The position numbers were made by a program, and so were the translations under genes. 64,000 nt of DNA. It comes from an uncultured Sediminibacterium sp. (lineage in GTDB: Bacteria > Bacteroidota > Bacteroidia > Chitinophagales > Chitinophagaceae). The stretch is taken from positions 19,938 to 83,937 of the forward strand of contig CAYUXJ010000001.1 in NCBI GenBank assembly GCA_964448845.1. Reading direction: 5' to 3'. Within the stretch, counting starts at the first letter, position 1. The number at the start of each line of letters is the position of its first letter. The notes beneath the pieces were generated by a model. The model was given only the letters and a program-made list of their open reading frames with translations. It ran no database searches and was not told the origin of the DNA. Below are positions 2,695 to 24,170 of this stretch, one piece after another.

Positions 2695-2715
2695 AATTTC
2701 CTGAATTTGGGACGG

Positions 2716-2890: not shown

Positions 2891-2898
2891 TATTTTTG
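2891..2898 (+). promoter_or_regulatory. -7 promoter box TAttTTTG upstream of the GH3-family gene
   Basis: Exact TAnnTTTG, 17 nt upstream of the ATG at 2915. Confidence 0.4.
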
Positions 2899-2914
2899 TT
2901 CTTCAACCCCCTTT

Positions 2915-4414: not shown

Positions 4415-4471
4415 GAATCGTCTTTTCGGATGGCTTTTCAATCGGATTACCTAAATTAGCATTTCGTCAGC

Positions 4472-5650: not shown

Positions 5651-5681
5651 GGGTAATTCATTCAGCAAGCAATTTTTCAAC

Positions 5682-7031: not shown

Positions 7032-7227
7032 AAGCTTACTTATTCAATAAGTAATACCTTTTTCTGCCTTGCATCAACTGCTTTTATATTATTGGATGGG
7101 TATTTCCATAGCAAGTAAATTTTATTCCTTTTAGTCAGCTTGATTCGCATTTGAATCAGTGGGTGGATGTAATAATTTATTAATCCCATGCCCTATTTTT
7201 TGCCATAAAATGGTCATATTTTCAAGT

Positions 7228-10200: not shown

Positions 10201-10455
10201 AATGTAATTGATGCTACTGCTTCCCCTCTCTTCGATCTTTTTCAAACAGATAAACATCTCATCCGCTATACGCACATACCGAGCAATATTCCACTGGATA
10301 AAATGAATAAATCGTTGTCTTCATTAAAGGGGAAGGAGAGAAAAATGGCTTTACAATCTATGAATGAATTATTCAATGAAGTAGATGGTGGAGAAGATGA
10401 GGAGATGAATGAGATCGTTTGGTACTACGTTAAAAGAATTCGAAGTAAAAAGTAG
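7228..10455 (+). CDS. Secreted three-domain phosphoesterase: PLC-like (PI-PLC-X/GDPD-like) phosphodiesterase + YVTN beta-propeller + phosphoesterase (PlcC/AcpA) family domain
   Basis: Signal peptide MKRAYFFLLLLTNVFFVHAQ. N-terminal motif HSHNDYQQEN...IEVDIF...LLVAHD (nt about 7300-7900). Propeller repeats LYVTNWAG, FLYVANGNSDEISVID, LYVSNGMDNAIAVV, LLFVANLES (about 8500-9100). C-terminal motifs IVYIIKENKTYDQVLGDL and LPNDHG (about 9300-10250). Confidence 0.7.
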   Translation: MKRAYFFLLLLTNVFFVHAQVKMHSHNDYQQENPFISAYQLHFTSIEVDIFLIKEKLLVAHDRKDVDSNKTLDKLYLRPLDSVLRFSPNRNLQLLIDIKTEADPTLQAVIKELRKYPVLLSNKSLTITISGNRPRMEDYSQYPEFIYFDGRPNESYTQAQLKKISLISDSYFNYIKLGKPDFSLIQDAVKNAHQSGKPFRLWAHPDNEAGWRQMILSGIDYINTDKIVELSDFVTKNNVEIKEEILRYSTLHDSIKMMPYNRIINSAGKVVRFGSPRQENHALDIVRIPETSVVVVEDRYGIIAIDTSGQIIDRYSFPTIGAFKSLMSTYSGIKSFKQADTTWILWSAAAKNESYLMYAIWKNDSFQHIGGYKIERNMPADNAIPNELIVDEKQSAVYLVLNGNNQVLKLTWPDKKMVWQQSSGGIAPYGIAKANNKLYVTNWAGPIAIDAAKERAGVPWDLAYTDPSTGATSMGTVSILDEKTGNMIGEIKVGLHPNVIKSSPDNRFLYVANGNSDEISVIDAKKDQVIETIPIGLFQKSFDLSGSSPVGLTLDGHNKLYVSNGMDNAIAVVSLGHKSSNKGRATSKIEGFIPTESYPSGSVLLGNLLFVANLESEGANIVTPEKRGRGIHYQFASVSIIPLPTTEQLKLYTSLVYENALLNRLEKIGLPPRDTVKPRPIPERLGEPSVFKHIVYIIKENKTYDQVLGDLKEGNGDSSLCVFGDFFTPNLHKLAKQYGWMDNYYASGKSSAEGHQWSNAAIVSDYVEKNVRTWLRSYPHRQTDALVYNKTGYIWNQAMDHGKRVRIFGEACTTIYDNKLNWFDLYKQYQSGAKPNWKNQTTIARIDSIISPTFPDNDNMVFSDQQRADVFIQEWDQLSGAGKLPHLMIVSLPNDHGAGLSPNFPTPDAMVADNDLALGRMVEHISNSPFFDSTLILITQDDSQSGWDHVSAYRTIGMAISAYNKKGVVSTNYNQTSMVRTIEQVLGIPPMNVIDATASPLFDLFQTDKHLIRYTHIPSNIPLDKMNKSLSSLKGKERKMALQSMNELFNEVDGGEDEEMNEIVWYYVKRIRSKK

Positions 10456-10644
10456 ATAATTACTTGGTGCGGTGCTTGTTAATTTTCAATTTTTTATAGT
10501 ACTCATTTTTTTGTGTGATCCTGCTGTGTTAAAAATGTTCACCTTTTATTAATCATTCGTTCATGATTTCTTGATATTGAAATCAAATCTGATCATTAGT
10601 ACATAGTTAATTTCGCTGTGTTAATTAATGAAAAATTTGATACA

Positions 10645-13600
10645 ATGAAACAAGCCTTAGGTAACAAGATTGATCATTTTATTTTTCGATTGTTTTCAAT
10701 TTTTATATTGTTTATTGGTTTAAATTCAACCGTATCGGCTGAATTTTACCAGAATTCAGGTAAAAATGAGGAAAGAATTGTCAAAGGCCGGGTAACCGAC
10801 GAAGCAACAGGAGCTGGTCTTTCCGCCGCGAATATCTCTATAAAAGGTGGTGGTAAAGGAGTAAGTACAGATGAAAATGGTAACTACTCTATTAAAGTCG
10901 ATAACAATCAAGCAGTCATAGTAGTTTCTTTCGTTGGTTACTCTTCTCAGGAGATTACCATTGGATCAAGATTGAATCTTAACATCTCTCTAGTAAAAAC
11001 TGAAAGTGAATTAGCTCAGGTAGTGGTAGTGGGATATGGTACACAAAGTAAGAAGGATGTAACGGGCGCAGTCAAATCGGTAAAGTCTGAAAGTTTTAAC
11101 CGTGGTATTATTAATGCACCTCAGCAGTTATTGCAAGGTAAAATTGCAGGTGTTAATGTTGTTTCTGCCAGCGGTGAGCCAGGAGCTAGCCAGGGAATTA
11201 CCATCCGTGGTCCGGGAGGCGTTCGAACAGGCAGTACACCCTTATTTGTAGTCGACGGGTTGCCTCTTGATAATTCTTCAACAGGTAACGGAGATCCGTT
11301 GAACTTTATTAACCCCGCTGATATTGAATCAATTGATGTACTGAAAGATGCATCAGCAACGGCAATTTATGGTGCTCGTGGAGCTAATGGTGTAGTAATC
11401 ATCAATACCAGAAAAGGCAAGGCAGGTACATCCTCTATGAGTTTAAACAGCAGTTTTGGCCTTTCTTCTATTGCAAATAAACTTCCTTTGTTCAGTGCAG
11501 ATGAGTTCAGAAGAAATGTAGTAGCTATTGGAGGTTTATTAGATGATAAAGGCGGAAATACAGACTGGCAGGATGTAATCACCCGCCAGGGATTCACACA
11601 GAATCATAACCTGACCATGAGCGGAGGAGCAGATAAAATTGTTTATTTCGCTTCCTTTGGTTTGCAAAAACAGGAGGGTATCATTAAGACGAATGATTTA
11701 GATCGTTACTCAGGCAGATTTAATGCTACTCAAAAGTTTTTTAATGATCGGTTGAAAGTAGAAGTAAATTTAAGTGCCAATTCAACCAAGCAAATAAGGC
11801 CCAATATCGGGGGTGCCATCGGCGATGCCCTAAGTAATAATCCTACTTACCCGGCTTATGATGCTCAAGGAAATATTGCCGCTTACCTGTTGATAAATAA
11901 TCCTCTGTTAACATTCCAATTAGATAGAGATAATACCATCACTAATCGGTTGATTGGAAATATCTCACCATCACTTAAGATTACAAAAGGGCTCACCTAT
12001 AAACTAAACTTTGGTATAGATAATTCCACCTCCACCAGGGATATCCAGAGTCTTCCTTATTTGCAACCGCAAAGAGATGGGCGCTTTGAGACTTTTAATT
12101 TTATCAATAGAAACTCCCTAATCGAGAATTATCTTACATATGATTTTTCTATAAAAGAACACAAATTTTCAACACTGGCCGGTCATTCCTATCAAAAAGT
12201 ATTTTTACAAGGTCGCGGTTGGAGCATCAATCGCTTTCCAATAACACCTGTAGAACCGATTTATAACCCAGGTACGGGGCAGGAACTTACGCTGGCAAAT
12301 AACAGACCGGGTGGCAATGCTACTATCAATGAAATTCAGTCCTTCTTTTCCCGAATTAATTATTCCTACCAAAACAAATACTTGGCAACTGTCAATTTCA
12401 GAATGGATGGTTCAAGTAAATTCGGTGCTAATAATAAGTATGGTTACTTTCCCTCCTTTTCTCTGGGATGGAGAATTTCTGAGGAAAAATTCATGCAAAA
12501 TGGATTATTTAGTAATCTTAAATTGAGAGCAGGTTGGGGACAAACTGGCAACCAGGAAATACCATCCAAGATCACTCAGCCACTTTTCACGGCTACAGTT
12601 TCAGCAGGTAGTAGCTATCCACTCTTTCCTACCGGTCCTTATCCGGCAGGAATTGTATACTCCCGATTGGCCAATCCTGACATACAATGGGAGGTATCAA
12701 CACAATCTAATGTGGGATTGGACTTCGGTCTTTTTGGGGGAAAACTGAATGGATCCATAGACTATTTTAATAAAGTTTCTAAAAACATTCTCTTGGAAGT
12801 TATTCCGGCAGATCCGGTTCAGCCAGCAGGAACGTTTTGGACCAATGTTGAAAACATGTCCATTACTAATAGTGGCTTGGAAATTGATCTCGAATATCGC
12901 AACAGAACCAGTTCAGGATTCCAATATTCATTTGGTGGTAATATTTCATTCTTAAAGAATATTGTGAAAAATTCTCCTTATTCAGTTATTCAGTCCGGCT
13001 CTGCATCGGGTGCAGGTCTTACATCTGCAACTATAAATGGTTATATCAATAACCAACCCATTGGTACCTTCTTCCTGCGTGAATGGACTGGGTTCAATGC
13101 TGCAGGATTGAGTACATACCGAGATGTTGATAATGATGGTGTGGTAGGTGATAAAGACCGGTTACCATTAGGTACAGCACTTCCAACTGTATTGTATGCT
13201 TTCTTTGGCAACTTCGAATTCAAGCGATTTGACCTTTCTTTAAATTTCAATGGTGTTTCAGGCAACAAAATATATGACAACACCGCCAATGCAAGTTTTT
13301 ATAAATTGCGTTTGTCTAAAAGCATTAATTCAACACCCGCTGCAATTCAGTTCAATGAAGAATCAATTACAAATTCAGCTCCGGTTAGTTCCAGATATCT
13401 TAAAGATGGTGCATACTTGAGATTAAACAATATGGCATTGGGCTATACTTTTGATACAAAAGATAAGGCAATTGGTAAATACATTTCAAATCTGAGATTT
13501 TCAATAACAGCGCAAAATTTATTCGTAATTACTCAGTACGATGGTTATGATCCGGAAGTGAATGCTGATAGATCCATCAATGGAGTTCTATCTTATGGTA

Positions 13601-13662
13601 TTGATCAATTAAGCTATCCAAAATCTCGAAATTTCATTTTGGGATTAAATGTTAACTTCTAA
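10645..13662 (+). CDS. SusC/RagA family TonB-linked outer membrane protein
   Basis: CarboxypepD_reg-like N-terminus (VKGRVTDEATGAGLSAANISIKG), a plug region (VVVVGYGTQSKKDVTGAV, IDVLKDASATAIYGARGANGVVII), about 1000 aa, and a terminal ...LGLNVNF. Confidence 0.9.
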   Translation: MKQALGNKIDHFIFRLFSIFILFIGLNSTVSAEFYQNSGKNEERIVKGRVTDEATGAGLSAANISIKGGGKGVSTDENGNYSIKVDNNQAVIVVSFVGYSSQEITIGSRLNLNISLVKTESELAQVVVVGYGTQSKKDVTGAVKSVKSESFNRGIINAPQQLLQGKIAGVNVVSASGEPGASQGITIRGPGGVRTGSTPLFVVDGLPLDNSSTGNGDPLNFINPADIESIDVLKDASATAIYGARGANGVVIINTRKGKAGTSSMSLNSSFGLSSIANKLPLFSADEFRRNVVAIGGLLDDKGGNTDWQDVITRQGFTQNHNLTMSGGADKIVYFASFGLQKQEGIIKTNDLDRYSGRFNATQKFFNDRLKVEVNLSANSTKQIRPNIGGAIGDALSNNPTYPAYDAQGNIAAYLLINNPLLTFQLDRDNTITNRLIGNISPSLKITKGLTYKLNFGIDNSTSTRDIQSLPYLQPQRDGRFETFNFINRNSLIENYLTYDFSIKEHKFSTLAGHSYQKVFLQGRGWSINRFPITPVEPIYNPGTGQELTLANNRPGGNATINEIQSFFSRINYSYQNKYLATVNFRMDGSSKFGANNKYGYFPSFSLGWRISEEKFMQNGLFSNLKLRAGWGQTGNQEIPSKITQPLFTATVSAGSSYPLFPTGPYPAGIVYSRLANPDIQWEVSTQSNVGLDFGLFGGKLNGSIDYFNKVSKNILLEVIPADPVQPAGTFWTNVENMSITNSGLEIDLEYRNRTSSGFQYSFGGNISFLKNIVKNSPYSVIQSGSASGAGLTSATINGYINNQPIGTFFLREWTGFNAAGLSTYRDVDNDGVVGDKDRLPLGTALPTVLYAFFGNFEFKRFDLSLNFNGVSGNKIYDNTANASFYKLRLSKSINSTPAAIQFNEESITNSAPVSSRYLKDGAYLRLNNMALGYTFDTKDKAIGKYISNLRFSITAQNLFVITQYDGYDPEVNADRSINGVLSYGIDQLSYPKSRNFILGLNVNF

Positions 13663-13672
13663 TTTTTAAAAT

Positions 13673-15364
13673 ATGAAAAATCTAGTATTACAATTTTCAG
13701 TCATGGTTGCTGCCGCTTCCATTATGACAGGCTGCACCAAATTGGATGAAAAAATTCTCGATGAATCATCTGTAACCGGATTGACAGAAAAGCAGATTGC
13801 TGATGGAACCATTGCTCCGGTTTATGCCAATTTGCCCAATATATACATACATACTGGTCTCTTTGCTTTGCAGGAAATTACTACCGATGAGGCTATCTTA
13901 CCTTACAGAGGAGGAACTGATTGGGGTGATAACGGAATTTATATTGATTTACACCGACATACTACCAACAGTAATACAGCCAATGTTAGAAATACCTGGA
14001 ATCCATTGACCCAGAGTTTATCCAGAGCAGTTTCAGCAATCAGTTCATTGCGAGATAGCAAAGATCCAAATGCCCAGAAATATATTGCGGAGGCAAAAGG
14101 AATGTATGGATTTTATAATTTAATGTTCTTGGATCTTTGGGGAATCATATTCGTTAAAGAAGATCCGGGAGCTGTTTCTAAAATATTACGTGGCGACGAA
14201 GCTGTTGAATATCTTAAGAATATTTTTCTCGAAATTGAACCCGTACTCGATAATACAACCGCACCCGGTAGACTTACCCGTGCCGGAGTTTGGGGGCTGC
14301 TAGCCAAATTACATTTGAACGCTGCCGTTTACAGAGATCGCTATGCACAGAATTTTACTTTTCGTCCGGAAGATATGGATAAAGTGATTGAATATACTAA
14401 TCGAATCATTTCCGCCGGTCAATTCTCCTTATCATCTGATTATTGGGCTATTTTTAATGATAACAACAACTCCAACAGGGAACTTATTTTTGCGGTTGAT
14501 CAACGGCCTGATCTGAATGGACACAATCGTTTATCTTATTTTTCTTTATCGGGTGATCAATTCCCACTGCCTGCTTTTACGGGTGCTAACGGTACTGACG
14601 GTCCAGCTATCACACCTGATTTTTATAGAACCTGGGTAGATGCCTATGCTCCTACGGATCCAGCCGATGCAGATCCCCGTTTTTACAAGAAAAATGTAGT
14701 CGTTGATCCAGTGACTGAAGAAGCTTGCTATGATTCTGCTGTTTATCGCCTTGATCGGGGTATCCTGAGAGGACAGCAATACGGACTTATCCGGGTAAAT
14801 GGCGTTTTTCAAAGATGTTCTAACGGTACCTTCAGAGTAGGCAGGTTGTTTAACATTACTCGTAATCGGCCCACCACTCCGGTAGTGCACACAGAAAGAA
14901 TTGACTTTACACCTTTGGGGAGTGACTATGCTACCGGCTTCCGTGTGCTGAAGTATGAGTTTAGCCGAACCTCTGTAAGTGGTCGAAATTTCGGAGCAGT
15001 TGATATTCCGATTATACGTTTGGGCGATGTATACCTGATGCGTGCTGAGGCAAGAATGCGCAAAGGAGATGCATCCGGAGCTTTAACAGATGTCAATACA
15101 GTTCGAACTTCTAGAACCAGTGGTGGATTTAGCGGACGGCCATTATCTTCTATGAACCTTGATATCCTTTATCGTGAAAGGGGATTTGAATTGTACTGGG
15201 AAATGCACCGTAGAACAGATATGGTTCGATTTGGGAAGTTTGAGGGAACATGGACTGAAAAATCATCAACAGATAGAAATAAACGTATATTCCCGATTCC
15301 ACAAACAGCGATTGATGGTGCATCTAATTTACCCGGATATCTGGTGCAAAACCAGGGATACTAG
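13673..15364 (+). CDS. SusD/RagB family nutrient-binding outer membrane lipoprotein
   Basis: Starts 10 nt after susC. Lipobox ...IMTGC, and SusD-like C-terminal motifs (IIRLGDVYLMRAEARMRKGD, ERGFELYWEMHRRTDMVRF). Confidence 0.85.
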   Translation: MKNLVLQFSVMVAAASIMTGCTKLDEKILDESSVTGLTEKQIADGTIAPVYANLPNIYIHTGLFALQEITTDEAILPYRGGTDWGDNGIYIDLHRHTTNSNTANVRNTWNPLTQSLSRAVSAISSLRDSKDPNAQKYIAEAKGMYGFYNLMFLDLWGIIFVKEDPGAVSKILRGDEAVEYLKNIFLEIEPVLDNTTAPGRLTRAGVWGLLAKLHLNAAVYRDRYAQNFTFRPEDMDKVIEYTNRIISAGQFSLSSDYWAIFNDNNNSNRELIFAVDQRPDLNGHNRLSYFSLSGDQFPLPAFTGANGTDGPAITPDFYRTWVDAYAPTDPADADPRFYKKNVVVDPVTEEACYDSAVYRLDRGILRGQQYGLIRVNGVFQRCSNGTFRVGRLFNITRNRPTTPVVHTERIDFTPLGSDYATGFRVLKYEFSRTSVSGRNFGAVDIPIIRLGDVYLMRAEARMRKGDASGALTDVNTVRTSRTSGGFSGRPLSSMNLDILYRERGFELYWEMHRRTDMVRFGKFEGTWTEKSSTDRNKRIFPIPQTAIDGASNLPGYLVQNQGY

Positions 15365-15431
15365 TAAATTGTAGTCGCTGCTTTCAGTAGTTGGGTCTGA
15401 CATTCTATTGCGCTATTGCGCTCATCATCTC

Positions 15432-15490
15432 GAATGACTGGTTTTCTTTTTATTTAATAATAATTGAATACCAGTCATTCGTTCTTTTTT
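15432..15490 (+). terminator. Hairpin plus T-run after susD
   Basis: GAATGACTGG (15432-15441) pairs with CCAGTCATTC (15471-15480), followed by GTTCTTTTTT. The loop is long (29 nt, AT-rich), so confidence is moderate. Confidence 0.5.
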
Positions 15491-15514
15491 CTAGGTGTAG
15501 ATCGTTTTTTATAG

Positions 15515-15785
15515 TCGAACTACAAATGGCAATACATAGTATGTCATGGCTGCTTCATTTGAGATTAAATAACCAGTTAACCGCCGCACTGGTTGGTTGC
15601 TGACTGCCTGCCGCCGAAGAATCAAAAATTTATCAAATGCGAATGTAATAGCCTGTTTTTATTCAAAGAACATTTATTTAAGTACCGTAAAGGTGACTTC
15701 ATTTCTGGTAAGGTGCTGACGAAAAATAGTGAAATAAGCAGGTAGAAGTCCAATGGTAGTTAAGATTGGTTAGGGGTTCGACTCC
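15515..15785 (+). pseudogene. Decayed internal fragment of a tmRNA (ssrA) gene: tag region through T-loop, lacking both the 5' and 3' acceptor parts
   Basis: Colinear with 17678-17951 of the intact ssrA. Shared blocks are TCGAACTACAAATGGCAATACA, CATGGCTGCTT, CCGCCGCACTGGTTGG, GTGAAATAAGCA, AATGGTAG and GGGGTTCGACTCC. In the tag frame CAG has become TAG and the TAA stop has become TCA. There is no GGGG...GGTTTCGAC 5' end and no ...CTCGACTCCACCA 3' end. Confidence 0.8.
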
Positions 15786-15802
15786 ACAGCAACACGTAAA
15801 AC

Positions 15803-15831
15803 GAAAGTAGCCCCATGCCGGGGCTTCTTTC
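15803..15831 (-). terminator. Strong GC hairpin terminating the minus-strand orphan gene (possibly bidirectional)
   Basis: GAAAGTAGCCCC / GGGGCTTCTTTC stem around a 5-nt loop, 18 nt after the stop at 15849. The minus transcript continues TTTCGTTTT. Confidence 0.6.
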
Positions 15832-15848
15832 GATAGGTACATTTACAA

Positions 15849-17345
15849 TTACGGTTTTATTACCTTAAACCCCTTTATGCTGCTGATAAAATCAAGAGAG
15901 GCATCCTTATTTTCCGAATACTCAATATAGCAGGAAAACTTAGCTGTTAGATCTGATAAACTCATGTAGGCAACCTCATCTTGCGCAACATAATACCTGA
16001 GTGCATCCTTTATATAAATGGATGCGGATGGGTAACTTGTTTCAGCATCAATTCCCTTATACTCTTTTAATTCTAATGCAGGTCTGCCAACGCGTGCATC
16101 TAAATTATAGGAAAATCTGCTGTATTGGCGATTGGTAGAGCTGAAATCTATGTTTCTGTTTGCTTCAATCGGTCTCAAATTGATTGTCTTGGAATATTTT
16201 CCGGCATTCATTTCAACCTTATACATAGTAATAATCCCCCAGGTATATTGTGCTACAAATTGGTGCATGGCTGTTCTGGAAGCATTCGAACGCATCTCAT
16301 AATTAGTACCATTGTAATTTAATGTGAAAGTTGCTTGACCCAAGTCTTCCCGATCATCATGTGTTCTTCGTGTTCGAATGGTATAGACACCTGGCTTAAT
16401 GTCGATTACTTTTTTATCTCCATACTCGTACGAAACAGTACCTCTCCGTTCATTCACTTTTTTCTCTTCAGACAGCAATTCAAAGGAGATGGCTTGATTT
16501 TTTTTTCTGGCTTCTTCCAACATTCCAGGTAAATCTCTGCTTCTACCCTTTAAACTGATGTATTCACCAGTATCTCCCATTCTAATGGCTAAAAGTTTAT
16601 CTCTTCGCTTAAGTTGACTGATTGCGGCAGGACTACCGGGAAACACTTCACCAACTTCCGGATACTTATCAGATGTATAGAGTTTAAAACCCCAATCGGT
16701 TTGAGGCTGATCAATATAATTGTAATCAATGGCCTGAAGCGTTTTATGAATATGATGGTTAAGTATATCTAAGTTTTTATTCGTCTTGAACTTTAATTCA
16801 AGCTGAATTGTCCAACCAAAAATAATACCCAGATAAGGCTCAGATGCGGTAACCTCATAATCGAGGCAATCCGGGAAAACCTTTTGGGCAAATTGTGATA
16901 AGGAATTAATAATATTGAGTTCACTCTCTTCCGCGAGTTTCTCATTGATCACTTTTGCTTTTATGCCCGAAACAAATTCACTCGCATCATAGTCAATATT
17001 CTTTCCGTTGCTTCTGATGAAGGTAGCCAGCTTTTGTTTTGACATGGTTACTTTTAAGGTCACTGAATGTCTTCCATTCACCACAATACTGCTGATTTCC
17101 TGGAAATTACTTACCGAACCGGAACTAAAAGTGAAAATTTCATCTTTCAGCAGTTGGCCATTGGTCACCACTGTACTGGTGCTAACAAAAGTGCCATAGA
17201 TTTTTTCAATAGCTGTTCTAAGTGAGCTATTTCTGGCTGCTTCGTAGGAATTACCTGAACCTTCCGATATGACTGTTATTGTTTCCTGACCATTGACAAG
17301 GGAAACGGTGACCAACAGGAAGAATGAGAAGAAAAGCTTTTTCAT
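15849..17345 (-). CDS. Orphan secreted protein of unknown function (LPP20-like N-terminal region, central PDZ-like segment)
   Basis: Signal peptide MKKLFFSFFLLVTVSLVNGQ (start set at ATG 17345). The segment EVFPGSPAAISQLKRRDKLLAIRMGD resembles a PDZ GLGF/ligand-groove region. I recognise no other family. Confidence 0.7.
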   Translation of the reverse strand: MKKLFFSFFLLVTVSLVNGQETITVISEGSGNSYEAARNSSLRTAIEKIYGTFVSTSTVVTNGQLLKDEIFTFSSGSVSNFQEISSIVVNGRHSVTLKVTMSKQKLATFIRSNGKNIDYDASEFVSGIKAKVINEKLAEESELNIINSLSQFAQKVFPDCLDYEVTASEPYLGIIFGWTIQLELKFKTNKNLDILNHHIHKTLQAIDYNYIDQPQTDWGFKLYTSDKYPEVGEVFPGSPAAISQLKRRDKLLAIRMGDTGEYISLKGRSRDLPGMLEEARKKNQAISFELLSEEKKVNERRGTVSYEYGDKKVIDIKPGVYTIRTRRTHDDREDLGQATFTLNYNGTNYEMRSNASRTAMHQFVAQYTWGIITMYKVEMNAGKYSKTINLRPIEANRNIDFSSTNRQYSRFSYNLDARVGRPALELKEYKGIDAETSYPSASIYIKDALRYYVAQDEVAYMSLSDLTAKFSCYIEYSENKDASLDFISSIKGFKVIKP

Positions 17346-17426
17346 TGCACGGATTTTTAACCACAATGCAGGAATCACCTCCCTAAAAGGATGGATCCTG
17401 ATGCGGATTGGATTTTAAATGAGTGT

Positions 17427-17434
17427 CAAATATA
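17427..17434 (-). promoter_or_regulatory. -7 box TAtaTTTG upstream of the orphan gene
   Basis: The + strand reads CAAATATA, 82 nt upstream of ATG 17345. Confidence 0.35.
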
Positions 17435-17564
17435 GGAAAGAGGCAAAATGTGCTGATTGAAGTCAGCATACTTTTTGCTTTGAATTTGTTAAAATCATCT
17501 ATAACACATGATGTTGAATATCAATATGATGGATTGCTATGGTCTGCATCTTCCTAAAAAGAAG

Positions 17565-17572
17565 TACCTTTG
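17565..17572 (+). promoter_or_regulatory. -7 box TAccTTTG upstream of ssrA
   Basis: Exact TAnnTTTG, 22 nt upstream of the mature tmRNA 5' end, consistent with a short precursor leader trimmed by RNase P. Confidence 0.35.
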
Positions 17573-17593
17573 TGTGTTCGCATTACTTTAACC

Positions 17594-17965
17594 GGGGTCG
17601 TATTGGTTTCGACAGCATAGGTTACGGTTGGTGTAAGCATGCAGTGCGTTGTATAATTAGCACTTTAATCTGAATATTCGAACTACAAATGGCAATACAC
17701 AGTATGCCATGGCTGCTTAATCAGTGATTAAGTAACCATTTGGGCCGCCGCACTGGTTGGTCGCTGACCGCGTGCCGCCGCCGACTCAAAACAATAGCGA
17801 TTGCGAATACAGAAGGCTGTGACTGTATTCTAAGACCATTCAGCTAAGTGCTTCATAGGTGGGTTCACTTCCGGTGAGGTGCCGACAAAAAATGGTGAAA
17901 TAAGCATGTAGAAAGCTAATGGTAGCGATGTTTGGACAGGGGTTCGACTCCCCTCGACTCCACCA
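17594..17965 (+). ncRNA. ssrA: tmRNA (transfer-messenger RNA), one-piece, CCA encoded
   Basis: The 5' end is GGGGTCGTATTGGTTTCGAC. The 3' end is GGACAGGGGTTCGACTCCCCTCGACTCCACCA. The acceptor stem GGGGTCG/CGACTCC includes the G3.U alanine identity pair. The tag ORF is ...GGC AAT ACA CAG TAT GCC ATG GCT GCT TAA (17691-17720), giving GNTQYAMAA. Confidence 0.95.
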
Positions 17966-18016
17966 ATACCCTCCACTTTTTTCTTCTAAGTAGGAAAAAT
18001 GGGGGGTATTTTTTTA
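17966..18016 (+). terminator. Intrinsic terminator after ssrA
   Basis: ATACCCTCCACTTTTT pairs imperfectly with AAAAATGGGGGGTAT, followed by T7. Confidence 0.6.
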
Positions 18017-18084
18017 ACCCACTTCAGTTATCTATTTTGCTTTTACCAGATTGGATTCTTCAGTCAGCGATTTAAAAAGGATGT

Positions 18085-18570
18085 TTAATGGGGCAGACGT
18101 TCTCTCAAGTAGCCATAGATCCAAGTGCCTGCAATGGCACTTGCAATTACAATGAGAATGGCAAAAAAGCCGGCACCAATGTGAGCAAATAAAGGGCCCG
18201 GACAAGCACCGGTCATTGCCCAGCCAAAACCAAAAAGAAGTCCGCCAAAGATTTGACCTTTGCTAAATTCTTTATTTACGATGGTTATTTTTTCTCCGTG
18301 TATGGTCTTGATATTAAATCGCTTGATCAGGAAAACCGATATCATGCCGACAACAACAGCTGTTCCAATAATTCCGAACATGTGAAAGCTTTGTAGGCGG
18401 AACATTTCCTGAATCCTGAACCAGGAAATAATTTCGGCTTTATAAAATACAATACCAAAAATTATTCCTACAAGGGAATATTTTAAATTATACCATCCTG
18501 GATGTACTTTTTCTGAAGTGTTGATACAGGTACTGTTGTTATCTATTTGTTGAAGCGTAGGTTCTTGCAT
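18085..18570 (-). CDS. YeeE/YedE family (DUF395) sulfur-compound transport membrane protein, second half-unit
   Basis: Polytopic membrane protein with GWAMTGACPG, the conserved Cys loop of the YeeE/YedE family. Start set at ATG 18570 to avoid overlap with the upstream partner. Confidence 0.7.
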   Translation of the reverse strand: MQEPTLQQIDNNSTCINTSEKVHPGWYNLKYSLVGIIFGIVFYKAEIISWFRIQEMFRLQSFHMFGIIGTAVVVGMISVFLIKRFNIKTIHGEKITIVNKEFSKGQIFGGLLFGFGWAMTGACPGPLFAHIGAGFFAILIVIASAIAGTWIYGYLRERLPH

Positions 18571-18580
18571 GATTAATTTT

Positions 18581-19144
18581 TTAAAGTGATAAAATCCAGG
18601 GTAAAATATAGTTGGCCATGAGAAATCCACCTATCATAAAGCAAATGGTGGCAACGAGGGAAGGCCATTGTAAATTGCTCAGTCCCATTATCGAATGTCC
18701 GGAAGTACAACCACCGGCATATCGGGTACCAAAACCAACCAAGAAGCCACCTATCACCATGATTACAAATCCTCTGGCAGTCAATAAAGCAGAAAAGCTA
18801 AAAATTTCCGGGGGTAAAAGTTTTTCCGGTTGATTGATACCATATCCTGCTAATTCCTTCTGTAATTCGGGATGTATCATCATGGGATCAGGTGAAGCCA
18901 GGAAATAACCGGCAATGAAAGCGCCCACTATGATTCCACCGATAAAATAAAAATTCCACACTTCTTTTTTCCAATCATAATTAAAAAACGGAATGTTGGC
19001 TGGAATGCATGCAGCGCATATATGTCTTAAATTAGACGAGATTCCAAATGTTTTATTGCCTAAAATCAGCAGGGCAGGAACGATCAATCCGATAATAATC
19101 CCTGCTACATACCAGGGCCAGGGTTGTTGGGTTATAGTTGTCAT
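18581..19144 (-). CDS. YeeE/YedE family (DUF395) sulfur-compound transport membrane protein, first half-unit
   Basis: GFGTRYAGGCTSGH motif typical of YeeE/YedE. It is paired with the downstream half-unit, as is usual for split versions. Confidence 0.75.
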   Translation of the reverse strand: MTTITQQPWPWYVAGIIIGLIVPALLILGNKTFGISSNLRHICAACIPANIPFFNYDWKKEVWNFYFIGGIIVGAFIAGYFLASPDPMMIHPELQKELAGYGINQPEKLLPPEIFSFSALLTARGFVIMVIGGFLVGFGTRYAGGCTSGHSIMGLSNLQWPSLVATICFMIGGFLMANYILPWILSL

Positions 19145-19156
19145 TATTGATTGTTT

Positions 19157-20131
19157 TTAATGGGAATAAAAGCGTTGAATGGGGGTAAAAGGTCCATATT
19201 TATGTTGTTTCTCCGTGAAGCTATCAGCGTAGGGTCCAAAAGCAAAATCAATGGGTTTTTTTGTCCGGTAGGGCCAGTCTTCTTTTTGGTCTTTATGGGG
19301 TCTTGGCTTACTATTGATATAAGCCGCAACATCCCAACATTCCTCATCTGTTAACACCGGATTTTGTCTGGATGCTGTCAAATAAGGCATATTTGTTTTT
19401 ACATAACCAGCGAAATTGCTCAAACGGTAAAGTCCCGCTCCGTCATTGTAGCTGCTATTTCCCCAGAGAGGAGGGTAAGTATATTCAGATTCATCCAGAC
19501 TTAGCTGTCCCTGCCCATCCGGGCCATGACAACTTTGGCAGTGTTGTACATAAACGATTTTACCTTTCTCCGGGTCCGCAGCTCTAGGGAGGTAATCAAG
19601 TTTTTCGATACCCGTTCCATGTGGTTTTTTGCCTTTTGGAACATCTTTGCCCAGCCATTGTAGATAGGCGTAAATGGCTTTAAACTCTTTGCTATTGCTA
19701 TCAATGGCAGTCCCATTGAGACTTCTCTCCATGCAATCAGCAACCCGTTTATAAATACTTTCTTTTTGTCCGCTTCTATCCCTGTATTTGGGGTAGGTAG
19801 CGTAAACTGCTCCATAATTATTACCCCAGGGTTTATTGCCTCCTTGTAAGTGGCAATTCTGACAATTCATGCCATTAGTAATTTGTGCAACACTACCCTT
19901 TGGACCCAGGTAACGGGAGGTATGAGCAATCAACTCTTCACCATAGATAATCAGGTCTCTTTCTTCACCCTGATAACGATTATCTACGTAGAGACTGGGC
20001 CCCAACCATGTACTGTCGGTTACTGGTGATAATACTGCTTGTTCATCTTGAGTTCGGATGATGTAGGAGGCAATGACCCAGATAATGGATACTGCCAAAA
20101 TAAATATACCTACAACAGTGATCTTTTTCAT
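19157..20131 (-). CDS. Dihaem c-type cytochrome, TsdA-like (thiosulfate dehydrogenase family) candidate
   Basis: N-terminal signal/anchor. Two CxxCH motifs: MNCQNCH at about 19851-19871 and HCQSCHG at about 19524-19543. The inter-haem segment YPKYRDRSGQKESIYKRVADCMERSLNG resembles the TsdA/SoxA-type family pattern as I recall it. Confidence 0.55.
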   Translation of the reverse strand: MKKITVVGIFILAVSIIWVIASYIIRTQDEQAVLSPVTDSTWLGPSLYVDNRYQGEERDLIIYGEELIAHTSRYLGPKGSVAQITNGMNCQNCHLQGGNKPWGNNYGAVYATYPKYRDRSGQKESIYKRVADCMERSLNGTAIDSNSKEFKAIYAYLQWLGKDVPKGKKPHGTGIEKLDYLPRAADPEKGKIVYVQHCQSCHGPDGQGQLSLDESEYTYPPLWGNSSYNDGAGLYRLSNFAGYVKTNMPYLTASRQNPVLTDEECWDVAAYINSKPRPHKDQKEDWPYRTKKPIDFAFGPYADSFTEKQHKYGPFTPIQRFYSH

Positions 20132-20150
20132 GTTTTAAAATGGGGATCAA

Positions 20151-21848
20151 TTATCTGAATTCGTAAGAAGTGCCTTGTAATTGTGTTAATAAGGTTGCGG
20201 GCTGATCTGTCGCTTTAGTTCTGCCTTCTAGTTGGGGTTTAACGGGAGAATGAATGGATAGATACGATTCAAGAATGTCGTGTAGCAAAAGATTAGTGGA
20301 TTGCGGGGAGGAAACGTGTTCGATGCGACAGAGGGTGTCATTGGGATCTCCTTCTCTTTCGCAGGCAATTATTTGATAGCTCTTTGTTGTATCAAGTGGC
20401 TGTCCCTGAATAGTTACAGCATTTACCCTTTTACCCTTCGGTTGTCCGATTGTACAATTGACTTCCATACCGGCAAATCGAACGAACCACCCTCCGAATC
20501 TTTTGGAAGGATCTGTAGCAAAAGCATTTTCTAGTTCTTTTTCTAACCAATCCAATAGTTGAGCACCGGTTACCCATCCTCTTTTGGCTACTGAATCGAC
20601 GGGTAGCATATTCCATAAAAATTCACGTGTAATGGGAACGGTTTTTTTGGAATCAGGAACAGCCAGGGGTTGACAGAATCTAAAGCCATTGCTGAGTGCG
20701 ATATCTGGTTTAAACTTCCACATAATTGCATCCGTGATGAGGTTATCCATCGGGGTTTCCAGCACAAAGTATCTTACCAGTGGTGCTGCTGTATAGCCGA
20801 TGATCTTATTGAGTTTTTGTTGATAGGGTGCTGCAGCTTTTTCAATCAATTCTGTCATTGTTGGATCGGGTGGATAGGTGACAGGATCAACATCCAGTAA
20901 CTGATAATGCATCGATGCCATTTTACCATCTTTCACTTCCACGTCAAGTTTACCCAAAAAGGATCCAAAGGCACCGCATTCTATCACCTTACAATAGTTA
21001 CCGATAATCGGCTCGCGGACTCTTTCATGGGTATCTGCGCCGATGATGCAATCGGCCCCCTGTACCGAAGGATCATTTGCCAGTCCGACTTGTTGAGCCA
21101 AGCCCATGTGGGTAACAATAAAAATGATACCACATCCTTCCGTCTCTTTTAGGTATTGAATGTACTTCGCTACATTTTCATTGGCATGTGTGAATCGGAT
21201 GCCTTCACTGTAAGCAGGAGATTGTCTTTTCGGAATGAGGTGATCTGTATAACCGATGAAACCAACTTTGGCTCCGGCGATGTATTTGATCCAGTAGGGG
21301 GGATAGATCAGCGTTCCATTTTCGGCATCTCCGGTTTTATGCCACATGTTGGCGCATATTTTAGCTGCTGTAGCATGCCCCATGTCATAGAGCATTTTCT
21401 TCTTTTTATATACCACTTCCCAGTTACCGGGTAAGATCAGATCATATTGAAATGCATTGATGAGTGGAATCAATGCTTCTCCTTCTGATAGGGAGGCAAC
21501 GCCATGTCCATGAAAAAAATCTCCCCCGTCATAAAGTATATTATTGGGTGAACTTTTTCTGAGCCGGTCAATCATGGTTTTCAGAACTGCAAATCCGCCT
21601 CTTTTCTTATAAACGGCTTTTCCATTTTCCCAGAAAAACTCATCATGGGTATGTATTTGAGCATGGATATCGGATGTTATTAATAATGAAAACCTATTGC
21701 TTTCACTTGATTTTTCAGTTGATGTACTTGAATCTTTTGGGGCCATCCAATGTTGATCAGTTTGATCTGTGACAACAGCTGGTAAAGCCCATCCCAACAA
21801 TGCCGCATTTTTCAGAAAATTTCTCCTGTTTGGACTTTTCTTTTTCAT
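20151..21848 (-). CDS. Tat-exported metallophosphatase/5'-nucleotidase family protein, SoxB-like candidate
   Basis: Twin-arginine signal RRNFLKNAALLG. Calcineurin-like motifs DIHAQ, GGDFFHG, GNWE, THMG. C-terminal 5'-nucleotidase-like domain. At 565 aa its size and export route match SoxB, and it sits next to the cytochrome. Confidence 0.5.
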   Translation of the reverse strand: MKKKSPNRRNFLKNAALLGWALPAVVTDQTDQHWMAPKDSSTSTEKSSESNRFSLLITSDIHAQIHTHDEFFWENGKAVYKKRGGFAVLKTMIDRLRKSSPNNILYDGGDFFHGHGVASLSEGEALIPLINAFQYDLILPGNWEVVYKKKKMLYDMGHATAAKICANMWHKTGDAENGTLIYPPYWIKYIAGAKVGFIGYTDHLIPKRQSPAYSEGIRFTHANENVAKYIQYLKETEGCGIIFIVTHMGLAQQVGLANDPSVQGADCIIGADTHERVREPIIGNYCKVIECGAFGSFLGKLDVEVKDGKMASMHYQLLDVDPVTYPPDPTMTELIEKAAAPYQQKLNKIIGYTAAPLVRYFVLETPMDNLITDAIMWKFKPDIALSNGFRFCQPLAVPDSKKTVPITREFLWNMLPVDSVAKRGWVTGAQLLDWLEKELENAFATDPSKRFGGWFVRFAGMEVNCTIGQPKGKRVNAVTIQGQPLDTTKSYQIIACEREGDPNDTLCRIEHVSSPQSTNLLLHDILESYLSIHSPVKPQLEGRTKATDQPATLLTQLQGTSYEFR

Positions 21849-21894
21849 ATGTAAGCTTGAGGCTTGTAAAATGCAATTATTTTGGAAATGGTTT

Positions 21895-21910
21895 GGTGAC
21901 TTATATCACC
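21895..21910. promoter_or_regulatory. Perfect palindrome GGTGA-N6-TCACC (candidate Crp/Fnr-type operator), site A
   Basis: GGTGACTTATATCACC lies in the 80-bp gap upstream of the SoxB-like gene. Its centre is about 54 nt from ATG 21848. Confidence 0.45.
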
Positions 21911-21928
21911 AAGAGGGTAGGAGTAGTA

Positions 21929-23353
21929 TCAAAAGTGAAAATTCAAAATAAGATTCAAATGACTCATGTTAACTTTATTGATAGTATATTTTGGGTCATG
22001 TTTAGTATTTCCTGACGCGTACTTATAAAAATAAATCAATTGAGCTTGCCAACCCCTCATGATACCTGAAAAAGTGTATCGAAAATCGGAATTAAATTGA
22101 AAGTAGGAGGGGAATCCATATTTATTAAGTGCAGGCTGACTAACGTCCGGCAAGTCAAAATACCCTGCACTATTCTGCCAGCTAAACCGATTTTTTGCAT
22201 CCGATAACTTAGATTTTAAACTAATGGCATGAACATCCCCCAGGCCTTCATTTCTTTCCCCCATCATAAATGTAAAAAATGGATCTCTTCCCCATTCCCG
22301 GGGCATCAAGTACCTGCCATGACCGGTAATTCTGGTATAATTGATCGAGTTATCCCAGGGTCCGGTAATTTTTCCTATTCTTCCCCCAAAGGCAAGGGAA
22401 AACTGATCAGTCGGAAAGTATCTTTTGTTGATATCAATATGCCCTCCCTGGTTGACGGGTAGTTGTGTGATTAATTGAATTCCATAATAAAAAGGTGAGG
22501 AACTATCCTGAAGTTGATCGAATTGAAATAGGGTACTATTAAAAATGTTATACGTAAGTTGATTCCAGATTTGCCATTGCCGGTTTTTTTTGTTCTTTAT
22601 TTCTGCGGAGATGAGCAAGATACCAGAAGACTTGAGTTGGTTTTTATAACCGGATGGCGTTCCATCGGGATTCACACCGAGAGAGTATAACCCAATTGAT
22701 GCTCCTGTAGAATACCAATTGAAAGTAGATCGGGGAGAAAATCCATTGATCCAGCTTCCCAAGAGTTTCCATTTTCCAAAAGTATACTCCGCAGAAACTC
22801 CCTGAACAATGGTTGGGCGCATACGGCCATCCTGAAGATTGATGAAGGGAGTATTCATCAGTTGTTTACCGATGGTCAGATTGAATTGTTTTTTTTGATA
22901 ACAGACAAATAATTCTTCCAGGCGGTTCATTTGGGAGGAGCCGGCGGGATTGGTAATGTCGAATAGTCCCAACTCATATCTGTTGTATGTATTGGTAATC
23001 GGGTTGGGACGAGTGAGATCACTTGAGAATACCTTATGAACAAAGTACCCACTCATCCCTACATTCAAATGATGAAAGGTTTTCGATCTAAACTGAATGC
23101 CTCCCCCTACAGCTTGTGCATATTCCGGAGTAATCCCTTCATTAAAATTGCTGCTGAAAAATGACCTGAAATTTCCATGAAGCGACCCTGCTTGAAACGA
23201 ATGCAATAGCGATGAACTATCTCCTGTTTTGAAGGACTTTCCCCACAAATTGGGCGCCTCATTCAATTCCTGGTGTTGTGCACATGCAACAGATAACAGG
23301 AATAGCCATCCTGTGACAAAGACGATGATTCTGTAGAGGATAGGTTTCACCAT
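21929..23353 (-). CDS. Outer-membrane beta-barrel porin-like protein
   Basis: Signal peptide ending ...SVACAQ, alternating beta-strand pattern, aromatic-rich sequence, and a C-terminal ...LILNFHF terminal Phe signature. Family not identified. Confidence 0.5.
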   Translation of the reverse strand: MVKPILYRIIVFVTGWLFLLSVACAQHQELNEAPNLWGKSFKTGDSSSLLHSFQAGSLHGNFRSFFSSNFNEGITPEYAQAVGGGIQFRSKTFHHLNVGMSGYFVHKVFSSDLTRPNPITNTYNRYELGLFDITNPAGSSQMNRLEELFVCYQKKQFNLTIGKQLMNTPFINLQDGRMRPTIVQGVSAEYTFGKWKLLGSWINGFSPRSTFNWYSTGASIGLYSLGVNPDGTPSGYKNQLKSSGILLISAEIKNKKNRQWQIWNQLTYNIFNSTLFQFDQLQDSSSPFYYGIQLITQLPVNQGGHIDINKRYFPTDQFSLAFGGRIGKITGPWDNSINYTRITGHGRYLMPREWGRDPFFTFMMGERNEGLGDVHAISLKSKLSDAKNRFSWQNSAGYFDLPDVSQPALNKYGFPSYFQFNSDFRYTFSGIMRGWQAQLIYFYKYASGNTKHDPKYTINKVNMSHLNLILNFHF

Positions 23354-23357
23354 ATCC

Positions 23358-24170
23358 TTAGTGTGTCCTCGTTAGAGGAAAGAATAGTTGTTGAACTATG
23401 ATATATATTCCCATAATTAGAACAAACCAGCCGAATGCTTTTTTGAGGCGTGCTCCATCGATTTTTTTACTCAATCGATCGCCTATGAAAATCCCAATGA
23501 TTGCCAAAAAAGTTATGGTTAATAATAGTTGCCAGTCCATCGTTTGATTGGCGAGATCTCCTGTGAAGCCAATCAAAGATTTTGCCGCAATGATTACCAA
23601 TGAAGTACCGACCGCTTCTTTCATTGGCAGTTTACTCAGCAACACCAATGCAGGTATGATGAGGAATCCCCCTCCTGCACCGACCAATCCAGTCAAAATA
23701 CCAACCAAAATGCCTTCCAAGAAAATCATAGGATAGTTGAAAATTTGTTTCTTTACTTCAACATTAATTTTAGTTATTTTCTCTTTTATCATTGTAAATG
23801 AAGCAATTATCATTAAAATAGAAAAAAGTACCATAAGTGAAATTGATTTCGATAATTCCCAGTTTCCCCAATGTAGTATTGTATCGGGTATGGCGGGAAC
23901 CAACCATTTTCTAGTTGCAAAAACTGCTACTATACTAGGAATGCCAAAAATAATGGCGGTTTTTAGATTCACATTACCCTGTTGGTATTTGGGCCAGGCA
24001 CCTACTAAACTACTGCTTCCCACTATGAATAGGGAATAAGCAGTAGCGGTGATGGGATCAATTTTAAAAAGATAAACCAGAACAGGTACCGTCAAGATAC
24101 TTCCACCCCCACCGATGAGACCCAATGAAATACCAATCATAACAGATGCCAAGTAACCAATAATTTCCAT
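23358..24170 (-). CDS. TauE/SafE family sulfite/organosulfonate exporter
   Basis: 270 aa, about 8 TM helices, with two internal repeats carrying GGGGSILTVP and GAGGGFLIIP motifs typical of TauE/SafE (DUF81). Confidence 0.8.
   Translation of the reverse strand: MEIIGYLASVMIGISLGLIGGGGSILTVPVLVYLFKIDPITATAYSLFIVGSSSLVGAWPKYQQGNVNLKTAIIFGIPSIVAVFATRKWLVPAIPDTILHWGNWELSKSISLMVLFSILMIIASFTMIKEKITKINVEVKKQIFNYPMIFLEGILVGILTGLVGAGGGFLIIPALVLLSKLPMKEAVGTSLVIIAAKSLIGFTGDLANQTMDWQLLLTITFLAIIGIFIGDRLSKKIDGARLKKAFGWFVLIMGIYIIVQQLFFPLTRTH

Follow-up and report, generated by a model that had tools for sequence, protein, structure and literature searches.

How did a partial, eroded copy of the tmRNA gene (ssrA) come to stand 2.1 kb upstream of an intact one in the DNA of a Sediminibacterium (Chitinophagaceae), and which of the two sequences occupies the original site? 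The window, that is, the whole stretch of 64,000 nucleotides that was analysed, was compared with the corresponding loci of relatives, all of them metagenomic contigs or MAGs. We conclude, with a probability of roughly 0.88 for the explanation as a whole, that positions 15511-15787 are a pseudogene of the original ssrA, still at its ancestral position.

The window holds a single intact tmRNA gene, at 17594-17965 on the plus strand, which is called by both Rfam and ARAGORN and for which ARAGORN gives the tag GNTQYAMAA*. The gene (GGGGTCG.../...CGACTCCACCA) has a G3:U acceptor pair, a resume codon, a tag ending in YAMAA followed by a stop and a conserved promoter, as expected of a functional tmRNA gene, and it is 98.4% identical to the ssrA of L004/L015. 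The promoter region (17547-17593, plus strand) is homologous to the region 5' of ssrA in L004/L015 and would have been copied along with the gene; its -7 box, TACCTTTG, was located at 17565-17572 by a motif scan and is kept in relatives. A bidirectional terminator hairpin with a T-run (17966-18016) lies 3' of the gene; it shows no homology to the ancestral ssrA terminator and appears to be new.

The second sequence had been noticed in a sequence-only reading of this DNA as a colinear repeat of the tmRNA gene, with an identity judged by eye at three quarters to four fifths. The alignment showed that 15511-15785 is colinear with 17674-17951 (nt 81-358 of the intact gene) over 278 columns, with 217 identities (78%) and 3 gap columns; the Smith-Waterman score of 248 lies about 100 SD above that of shuffled sequences (20.5 +/- 2.2, maximum 30), and the 22-mer that the reading had found identical in both copies, TCGAACTACAAATGGCAATACA, is so. 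The whole relic (15511-15787, plus strand) covers the gene from nt ~81 to 372. As the reading had also stated, it has no tRNA-like 5' half; the missing 5' 80 nt, which also include PK1, were found neither at the relic nor at any other place in the window, so that the relic has no acceptor 5' strand at all. It also lacks a promoter. The motif scan found no TAnnTTTG -7 box 5' of it, and it adjoins the 3' side of the SusD terminator, which would agree indirectly with its giving no stable RNA. The Rfam comparison of the two intervals that the same reading had proposed gave RF00023 scores of 127.4 bits for the intact gene, at full length (model positions 1-374), and of 6.6 bits over 11 nt for the relic, which thus stays uncalled at the 47-bit threshold, as it does by ARAGORN.

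At the 3' end, the sequence-only reading had taken the last 14 nt to be missing and the homology to end 2 nt past the T-loop. Neither holds. The intact gene ends in GGGGT[TCGACTCC]CC[TCGACTCC]AC and the relic in GGGGT[TCGACTCC]AC; 10 nt (CCTCGACTCC) in the T-arm/acceptor region are deleted between the two TCGACTCC direct repeats, most probably by slippage. Past this deletion the relic runs on colinearly through the gene end and the spacer into a terminator hairpin (15803-15831), which is homologous to the hairpins that follow ssrA in L013, L004/L015 and L024. The apparent breakpoint at the T-loop is false, being a product of the slippage deletion, and the crossover by a tyrosine recombinase that had been read from it rests on a misread boundary. 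The terminator scan called this hairpin on the minus strand (15825-15809), and the ancestral ssrA terminator is now predicted to serve the convergent gene, here called geneX.

The tag frame of the relic reads GNT*YVMAAS..., confirming the lesions reported from the sequence alone: CAG has become TAG, so that tag codon 4 is now a stop, and the original stop is lost (TAA>TCA). The relic is altered at 38 of the 178 columns (21%) that are invariant in 12 intact genes of two genera, about the same rate as at the genus-invariant columns (52 of 265, 20%). Its substitutions run 30 GC>AT against 7 AT>GC, and the GC content has fallen from 49% to 39%. A count over 46 helix pairs gave 8 broken, 2 compensated and 7 with a change on one side, whereas the control, Flavisolibacter ssrA at equal divergence, has 0-3 broken and 9-11 compensated pairs; the compensatory changes seen by eye, being so far below those of functional controls, were rejected as a sign of function. 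The relic decays neutrally. It combines colinear homology, a missing end with disabling lesions, and evolution without functional-RNA constraint, as tmRNA pseudogenes do, and to judge from these lesions it is in all probability a non-functional ssrA pseudogene that does nothing today. Two further ideas were dropped. Gene conversion refreshing the relic does not agree with its lack of 4 of the 5 substitutions specific to the intact copy, and a two-piece (permuted) tmRNA is contradicted by the existing one-piece gene and by the missing acceptor strand.

The order of genes in relatives shows which copy moved. Downstream of an M50 gene, ssrA is found in 16 relatives of three genera, directly so in 13. 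A single contig of L022 reads M50-ssrA-(169-aa gene)-geneX-sulfur transporter, while L024 reads ssrA-terminator-geneX-sulfur transporter and is colinear base for base with the relic, terminator and geneX of the window. The ancestral order is thus M50 protease, ssrA, terminator, geneX (minus strand) and sulfur-transport gene; given this order in relatives, it is the relic that stands where ssrA originally lay, and the intact gene is the derived, relocated copy. Both outer neighbours are present in the window: the M50/RseP-family protease gene, ancestrally upstream of ssrA, at 5592-7031 (plus strand; Pfam Peptidase_M50 on orthologues), and the sulfur-transport-family gene (DUF6691/Sulf_transp), ancestrally downstream of geneX, at 18085-18630 (minus strand; Pfam, and synteny with L004, L022 and L024). 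The same layout occurs in five independent assemblies of the window species, and the relic is kept in all five. Among the relatives compared, no genome with two intact ssrA copies was found.

As the sequence-only reading had it, one gene lies between the copies and no integrase is present. GeneX (15849-17378, minus strand; probable start MKKLFF..., ~499 aa) encodes a secreted protein whose function was not assigned by domain search; it has no Pfam, NCBIfam or PDB sequence match and 12 homologues in the whole database, and its AlphaFold2 model is unusable (pLDDT 46.6). Nine neighbouring ORFs were scanned, and no integrase was found among them; they comprise SusC/D, phosphoesterase and sulfur-transport genes, a SoxA-like cytochrome c, a 5'-nucleotidase/metallophosphoesterase and a weak OprD-like porin. 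In the synteny comparison suggested in the earlier reading, L004, L022 and L024 have geneX in the interval from ssrA to the sulfur-transport gene, and these three and L013 have it alongside a single ssrA; geneX is an ancestral neighbour of ssrA and not island cargo. Its -7 box, TATATTTG, lies at 17427-17434 (minus strand; motif scan), and homology to the ancestral intergenic region stops 2 nt past this box.

The relocated copy replaced ~290 nt of the spacer between geneX and the transporter. This ancestral intergenic DNA, which matched no Rfam family, is kept in L004, L022 and L024 and is missing in the window. At the new copy, similarity to the ancestral locus is confined to about -47 to +5. 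To the left, the flank of the relocated cassette (17437-17546, plus strand) has no counterpart in the ancestral layout, and its comparison with the M50 3' end, with the spacer and with the ancestral intergenic region gave no significant similarity; this flank includes the motif TGAATATCAATATGATG and a hairpin (17449-17470) that is not conserved in L037. For the two outer flanks (17437-17546 and 17971-18105), no source was found in any locus compared or in the window. A tandem duplication reaching into M50 was rejected: 17437-17500 should then be ~78% identical to the M50 3' end, and the z value is about 0.

Meanwhile, the ancestral upstream neighbour is parted from the old ssrA by an inserted nutrient-uptake block, or PUL (7037-15510, plus strand; Pfam). 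The block contains, all on the plus strand, a beta-propeller/phosphoesterase (7159-10455), SusC (10618-13662) and SusD (13673-15364), and ends with the SusD terminator hairpin (15430-15482). The earlier description of the neighbouring block as AT-rich was not borne out, as its composition is not distinct except for one intergenic dip at ~10.2-10.8 kb. The block is absent from the M50-ssrA site in eight relatives (L004, L015, L013, L012, L010, L020, L022 and L025). L037, however, shares the M50|PUL junction and the new-copy flank with the window and has an ssrA relic of its own, and over the stretch from the geneX start to ssrA (window 17340-17684) the window and L037 are 81% identical; their derived layouts therefore share an origin. 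The relic of L037 is more eroded than that of the window (K 0.50 vs 0.23) but complete at its 5' end, and it carries different large deletions, so that no common core is kept between the two relics. Since the L037 relic has a complete 5' end downstream of the same insertion, truncation of the old ssrA by the PUL insertion was rejected, and the loss of nt 1-80 in the window relic was a later deletion.

Taken together, these observations suggest the following course of events. In an ancestor shared with L037, the SusC/SusD block would have been inserted between M50 and ssrA, and a second ssrA with its own promoter (from about -47, perhaps -80, to +5) would have been placed in the geneX-transporter spacer. 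The old ssrA, once redundant, would have lost its function and then drifted neutrally; in the window lineage, deletion would further have removed its promoter and nt 1-80, and slippage 10 nt. The second copy presumably predated the inactivation of the old one and presumably arose by local duplication rather than import. The sequence-only reading had proposed an insertion that destroyed an older ssrA and delivered a replacement, which holds only loosely: SusC/SusD did insert beside the old gene, but the insertion left that gene complete in L037, and geneX, as an ancestral neighbour, was not its cargo. Its second proposal, duplication followed by decay, comes closest of its three, with the polarity reversed, as it is the relic that stands at the ancestral site.

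It should be noted that the distribution of the layouts is incongruent with relatedness, which counts against this explanation. The closest backbone relative, L015/L004 (4-fold p from the window 0.35-0.50), has the ancestral layout, and L037 (0.57-0.60) the derived one; at least one transfer of the region between lineages by recombination is therefore assumed. The window relic is, moreover, half as decayed as that of L037, which requires that inactivation came later here, that rates differed or that import took place.

A different Sediminibacterium lineage may have supplied the entire rearranged segment (PUL, old ssrA, geneX and new ssrA) through homologous recombination, a possibility that we regard as real but doubtful. 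The relic would then have arrived already redundant or partly decayed and would still be a Sediminibacterium ssrA pseudogene, its history alone being different. Import would account for a derived layout common to L037, whose backbone is as distant from the window as that of any other Sediminibacterium, and for the ancestral layout of L015/L004, where reversion by deletion is impossible because the ancestral 290-nt intergenic region is retained. However, the identity of the M50 gene between the window and L015 is normal (0.86-0.88) right up to the stop codon, leaving no donor tract visible on the left; L037 is no nearer in the PUL genes (p4 0.49-0.62) than in the backbone genes; the geneX protein of the window is closest to that of L004 (88% aa); and there is no donor among the sampled genomes.

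A rather improbable elaboration combines a long period with two functional ssrA genes and the passing of an 11-kb module (uptake locus, old ssrA, geneX and new ssrA cassette) among Sediminibacterium species by recombination. If true, the long two-gene period would explain why the window relic is only half as decayed as that of L037, and the conserved ssrA could be a homologous anchor that captures the SusC/SusD locus, which would explain why two genera have this locus type between M50 and ssrA.

The third proposal of the sequence-only reading, taken here as the arrival of a foreign piece of ssrA together with the SusC/SusD block of another genus, was rejected as very improbable. The same PUL type does lie between M50 and ssrA in the genus of L026/L033/L034, and the SusC/D proteins of this genus are far more similar to those of the window (82-85% aa) than its M50 is (49%), which implies lateral exchange of the PUL. 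The ssrA of this genus, however, encodes the tag GESTYAMAA and diverges by 47% from the relic, which carries Sediminibacterium-specific states. In the phylogenetic placement that had been suggested, the relic clusters with the ssrA of Sediminibacterium (200/200 bootstraps) and has a long terminal branch; it is colinear with L024 together with its terminator, and the 5' part of the L037 relic is also of the Sediminibacterium type.

Just as hard to credit is the idea that selection maintains the relic, be it as a functional paralogue or as a small RNA exapted, for example, for regulation or as a 3'-UTR element. Retention of the relic in all five assemblies, persistence of a homologous relic in L037 and the lesser decay in the window would fit such a role; universally invariant positions altered as often as others, helices broken rather than compensated, the missing promoter motif and the lack of a core common to both relics do not, and strains vary at 1-3 sites per 287 nt in the relic vs 0 per 370 in the intact gene (100% conserved). 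A scar of tyrosine-recombinase island integration with crossover at the T-loop and geneX as the island remnant has next to nothing left in its favour: islands classically target ssrA (Hudson et al. 2014, PMC4131195) and by eye the homology appears to end just past the T-loop, but this end is an internal deletion, the relic lies upstream of the intact gene and spans nt 81-372 instead of a short 3' piece, there is no integrase, att-like geometry or empty-site relative, geneX accompanies single ssrA genes, and a genus-specific ssrA word is unmatched in 2.9 million viral contigs.

As the pseudogene of the original ssrA, the relic falls in a known class, that of tmRNA pseudogenes missing one end, and it reveals no new mechanism or system. 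Like the known members, it is a second, truncated ssrA-derived sequence beside one intact ssrA, missing one end, uncalled by tmRNA finders and bearing signs of inactivation. Unlike them, its history can be reconstructed, the original gene being the pseudogene and the derived copy the functional one, and a second lineage (L037) bears an independently eroded version.

Fragments of the ssrA 3' end are reportedly left by island and prophage integration (so Williams in 2003, in 'Traffic at the tmRNA gene'). Such fragments, which are att duplications (PMC4131195), resemble the relic as partial ssrA sequences near an intact one in the same orientation. They consist, however, of a short 3' stretch on the downstream side of the gene, at the distal boundary of an island that bears an integrase and that empty-site relatives lack; the relic is 277 nt long and upstream, with no integrase and an ancestral intervening gene. 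Partial tRNA/tmRNA sequences are used to delimit genomic islands, and the window case mimics an att scar, in that the fragment seems to stop at the T-loop and brackets an orphan gene, yet is a plain pseudogene. In Carsonella, ssrA is pseudogenised in situ, its conserved regions gaining substitutions until it is unrecognisable (PMC4131195). There too the sequence stays in place while eroding, but Carsonella loses trans-translation wholly during genome reduction, whereas in the window, from a free-living bacterium, a second copy at a distance of 2 kb maintains the function.

A single-copy gene can move by duplication and reciprocal loss, in which the original is lost. To our knowledge, reports of such relocation are rare for ssrA, a gene that is almost always present in one copy. 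The window offers a clean, datable natural example of a ribosome-rescue RNA gene changing its chromosomal position, along a path in which a promoter-bearing copy would be installed nearby and the original would erode in place, independently in two lineages. As in the general mechanism, the gene is duplicated and the original then lost; unlike it, the relocation here is coupled to the insertion of a nutrient-uptake locus beside the old copy.

The window holds a single tmRNA gene, called by ARAGORN and Rfam at 17594-17965 (+) with the tag GNTQYAMAA*. The local alignment of 15511-15785 with 17674-17951 (nt 81-358 of this ssrA) contained 217 identities in 278 columns (78%) with 3 gap columns, and its score of 248, compared with 20.5 ± 2.2 for shuffled sequence, confirmed that the repeat proposed in the sequence-only reading is real, including the 22-mer that is the same in both copies. 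The Rfam tmRNA model, proposed there for both intervals, covered the intact gene completely (127.4 bits) but recognised only 11 nt of the T-loop in the fragment (6.6 bits in a permissive scan). As that reading also stated, the fragment (15511-15787) lacks the 5' tRNA-like half: nt 1-80 have no counterpart in it, and none was found elsewhere within the window. Its tag frame is indeed GNT*YVMAAS, with CAG changed to TAG and TAA to TCA.

The end of ssrA holds TCGACTCC twice as a direct repeat (GGGGT[TCGACTCC]CC[TCGACTCC]AC), and the fragment ends in GGGGT[TCGACTCC]AC, which matches the outcome of a 10-nt deletion between the repeats. Past this deletion the fragment stays colinear: the spacer and the hairpin at 15803-15831 align with the post-ssrA terminators of the relatives L013, L004/L015, and L024; the window's own intact ssrA is followed by another terminator, to which neither aligns. 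Since homology resumes and runs on into the terminator, the breakpoint seen earlier at the T-loop was a misreading, which removes the case for a crossover by a tyrosine recombinase.

A 21-nt ssrA word search of species-representative genomes returned 13 loci, all from Chitinophagaceae (Sediminibacterium and Flavisolibacter). Further contigs were found via homologues of geneX (15849-17378 (-), between the two copies) and a metagenome scan; the comparators throughout are metagenomic contigs or MAGs. The M50/RseP-family protease gene (M50; 5592-7031 (+) in the window) lies directly upstream of ssrA in 11/13 loci. The other two are L016, a MAG contig of the window species with 99.8% identity to 15951-23950, and L021, which matched the window at ssrA only. 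L004 carries M50, ssrA, a 695-aa gene, a 169-aa gene, geneX(-), and the sulfur-transport gene; L022 has M50, ssrA, the 169-aa gene, geneX(-), and the sulfur-transport gene on one contig; and L024 has an intact ssrA, the terminator, geneX(-), and the sulfur-transport gene. In the window, M50 is followed by an inserted phosphoesterase-SusC-SusD block (PUL; 7037-15510), the fragment, the terminator, geneX(-), the intact ssrA, and the sulfur-transport gene (18085-18630 (-)). The window fragment, terminator, and geneX are base-for-base colinear with L024, which, together with the gene order of the relatives, places the fragment at the ancestral ssrA position. By gene order, it is the intact gene that has been displaced. 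The supposed orphan cargo, geneX, is thus an ancestral neighbour, found in L004, L022, and L024 by the suggested synteny check; SusD, which precedes the fragment in the window, does not precede ssrA in the M50-ssrA loci.

Pfam, NCBIfam, and PDB sequence searches found no domain or match for geneX, and its AlphaFold2 model has a pLDDT of 46.6. Relatives differ in what lies between geneX and the ssrA terminator (L004:2043-4950; L022; L013:1087-1641): the 695-aa and Cys-rich 169-aa genes, only the 169-aa gene, an ORF of 184 aa, or nothing. None of these intervals showed an integrase. It should be noted that the MAG JBIIRN01, which matches the window species, supplies both L010 and L016; its second contig, in which M50 (80% identity) precedes ssrA (95%), most probably reflects contamination of the bin with another Sediminibacterium rather than a second locus.

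Homology between the intact ssrA and the ancestral locus comprises the gene, ~47 nt upstream containing the promoter, and ~5 nt downstream. The motif TGAATATCAATATGATG at 17514-17530 (-80..-64 from the relocated ssrA) is similar to TGATTATCAATTTG / TTGATAATCAAATTGAAT, which occupy the corresponding place in the ancestral M50-ssrA spacers, and its position is matched in L004, L013, L015, L020, and L037. This hints that most of the spacer may have been copied as well; the motif could act as a regulatory element for the ssrA promoter. The ~290-nt region between geneX and the transporter is conserved in relatives. Window homology to it ends 2 nt past the geneX -7 box and picks up again close to the stop codon of the transporter gene, and the ~660 nt in between contain an ~110-nt flank, the spacer and promoter, ssrA, and a new terminator. 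The outer flanks had no match in any sequence retrieved, the M50 3' end included; this last result speaks against a simple tandem duplication that extended into M50.

The ancestral counterpart of 17437-18105 (L004:115-477, L022:1462-1874, L024:2788-3142) is replaced in both the window and L037. It includes the block GGTAACCAAGGGTTAATAAAATCTAAATAAA, near-invariant among relatives despite saturated synonymous divergence, and gave no Rfam match. The relocated copy encodes the terminal CCA (17960-17965; ...CTCCACCA); the ancestral-locus genes of L004, L013, and L024 end without it (...CTCCACTA or ...CTCCACAG), as does the relic (...CTCCACAG).

The derived layout is also found in a second lineage, L037, a 46-kb metagenomic contig reached through the phosphoesterase gene. 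It is colinear with 159-15384 (79% identity), a stretch that takes in the shared M50|PUL junction, and with 15850-17684 (72%); the second alignment stops 91 nt inside an ssrA of intact type that lies downstream of geneX. The left flank of the relocated copy, including the junction after the geneX -7 box, is common to both, and the region that runs from the start of geneX into ssrA (17340-17684) is 81% identical as a whole, compared with only 46-56% for other spacers. The shared junction and flank indicate that the insertion of the PUL and the new ssrA copy each arose a single time, before the two lineages diverged. L037 carries its own relic between SusD and geneX, which still includes remains of the promoter and the 5' end of ssrA (GGGGTAACATTGATTTCTACAGCATTGG...) and has a 13-nt tag deletion, an ~110-nt internal deletion, and 36% substitution (K about 0.50). 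As this 5' end is retained behind the same insertion, the old gene was not cut short when the PUL entered; the deletion that removed nt 1-80 and the promoter in the window came later and is specific to its lineage. The relics have 7 derived bases in common, against ~3 expected (permutation P = 0.055), an excess too slight to place inactivation before or after the split. The L037 geneX (18605-20100; called as 433 aa), only 71.5% identical to that of the window, has a premature stop (TAC>TAA near codon 34) and is probably decaying too.

Divergence at 4-fold sites of the backbone genes GH3, Dxr, and M50 was p 0.35-0.50 (JC-corrected K 0.47-0.81) between the window and L015/L004 and p 0.57-0.60 (K about 1) between the window and L037, the latter equal to that to other Sediminibacterium species. 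The closest sampled relative, L015/L004, thus has the ancestral layout, and the derived one is common to the more distant L037. The ancestral intergenic region is still present in L015/L004, so reversion by deletion is ruled out there; a layout at odds with relatedness implies that recombination moved the region between lineages at least once. No donor tract was seen in M50 up to its stop codon, and the PUL genes were no closer to L037 than the backbone genes at 4-fold sites. The milder decay of the window relic (K about 0.23) can be explained either by a longer phase in which both copies worked or by import at a later time.

For the analysis of decay, 12 intact ssrA genes from two genera were aligned and a consensus structure was derived. 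The fragment is altered at 38/178 columns invariant in all 12 (21%) and, at the same rate, at 52/265 genus-invariant columns (20%). Its substitutions are biased (30 GC>AT vs 7 AT>GC), and its GC content, once 49%, is down to 39%, the local genomic level. Among its 46 helix pairs, 8 are broken, 7 changed on one side, and 2 compensated, compared with 0-3 broken and 9-11 compensated in Flavisolibacter ssrA controls equally diverged from the window gene (77% identity). The suggested phylogenetic placement put the fragment with Sediminibacterium ssrA in 200/200 neighbour-joining bootstraps, on a terminal branch of ~0.21; intact genes differ mutually by <=0.03. A motif scan found no Bacteroidota -7 box (TAnnTTTG) upstream of the fragment, and the intact gene retains the conserved TACCTTTG. 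Across five assemblies of the species, the fragment has 1-3 differing sites per 287 nt and the intact gene none. These signatures are those expected of a resident-type gene decaying neutrally and free of constraint. A functional paralogue is very unlikely, given the invariant columns hit at background rate and the 8 broken vs 2 compensated pairs.

The first PUL gene (7159-10455) encodes a 1098-aa fusion of a YVTN-type beta-propeller and a phosphoesterase / acid-phosphatase-like domain, and genes for metallophosphatase and alkaline phosphatase occur in related loci; the role of the SusC/SusD locus may therefore be to scavenge organic phosphate, not to use glycans. Another Chitinophagaceae genus (ssrA tag GESTYAMAA) has the same SusC/SusD type between M50 and an intact ssrA (L026:5676-11778; L033:3501-9533; L034), with SusC/D 82-85%, M50 49%, and Dxr 70% identical to the window. 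This suggests that the uptake locus was laterally exchanged and ended beside ssrA in two genera. ARAGORN missed the tmRNA gene at L026:11409-11778 (Rfam 125 bits, full model). The nearest SusD homologues (88%) are in L027:1-8809 and also in L028 and L029, with the gene order partial tRNA, tyrosine-integrase-like gene (Arm-DNA-bind_5 / Phage_int_SAM_5), SusC, SusD, metallophosphatase, and alkaline phosphatase; this looks like a tRNA-integrated element carrying the locus.

The fragment differs from the ssrA fragments left by island integration in all three testable features, which makes that origin very unlikely: its position and extent are wrong, no integrase lies among the genes scanned, and the relatives compared show no empty site. 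It has the features of the known tmRNA pseudogene class, in which an ssrA copy is missing one end. To this class it adds a new case whose history is unusually well resolved; that ssrA moved by being duplicated and then losing the original copy is a minor curiosity.
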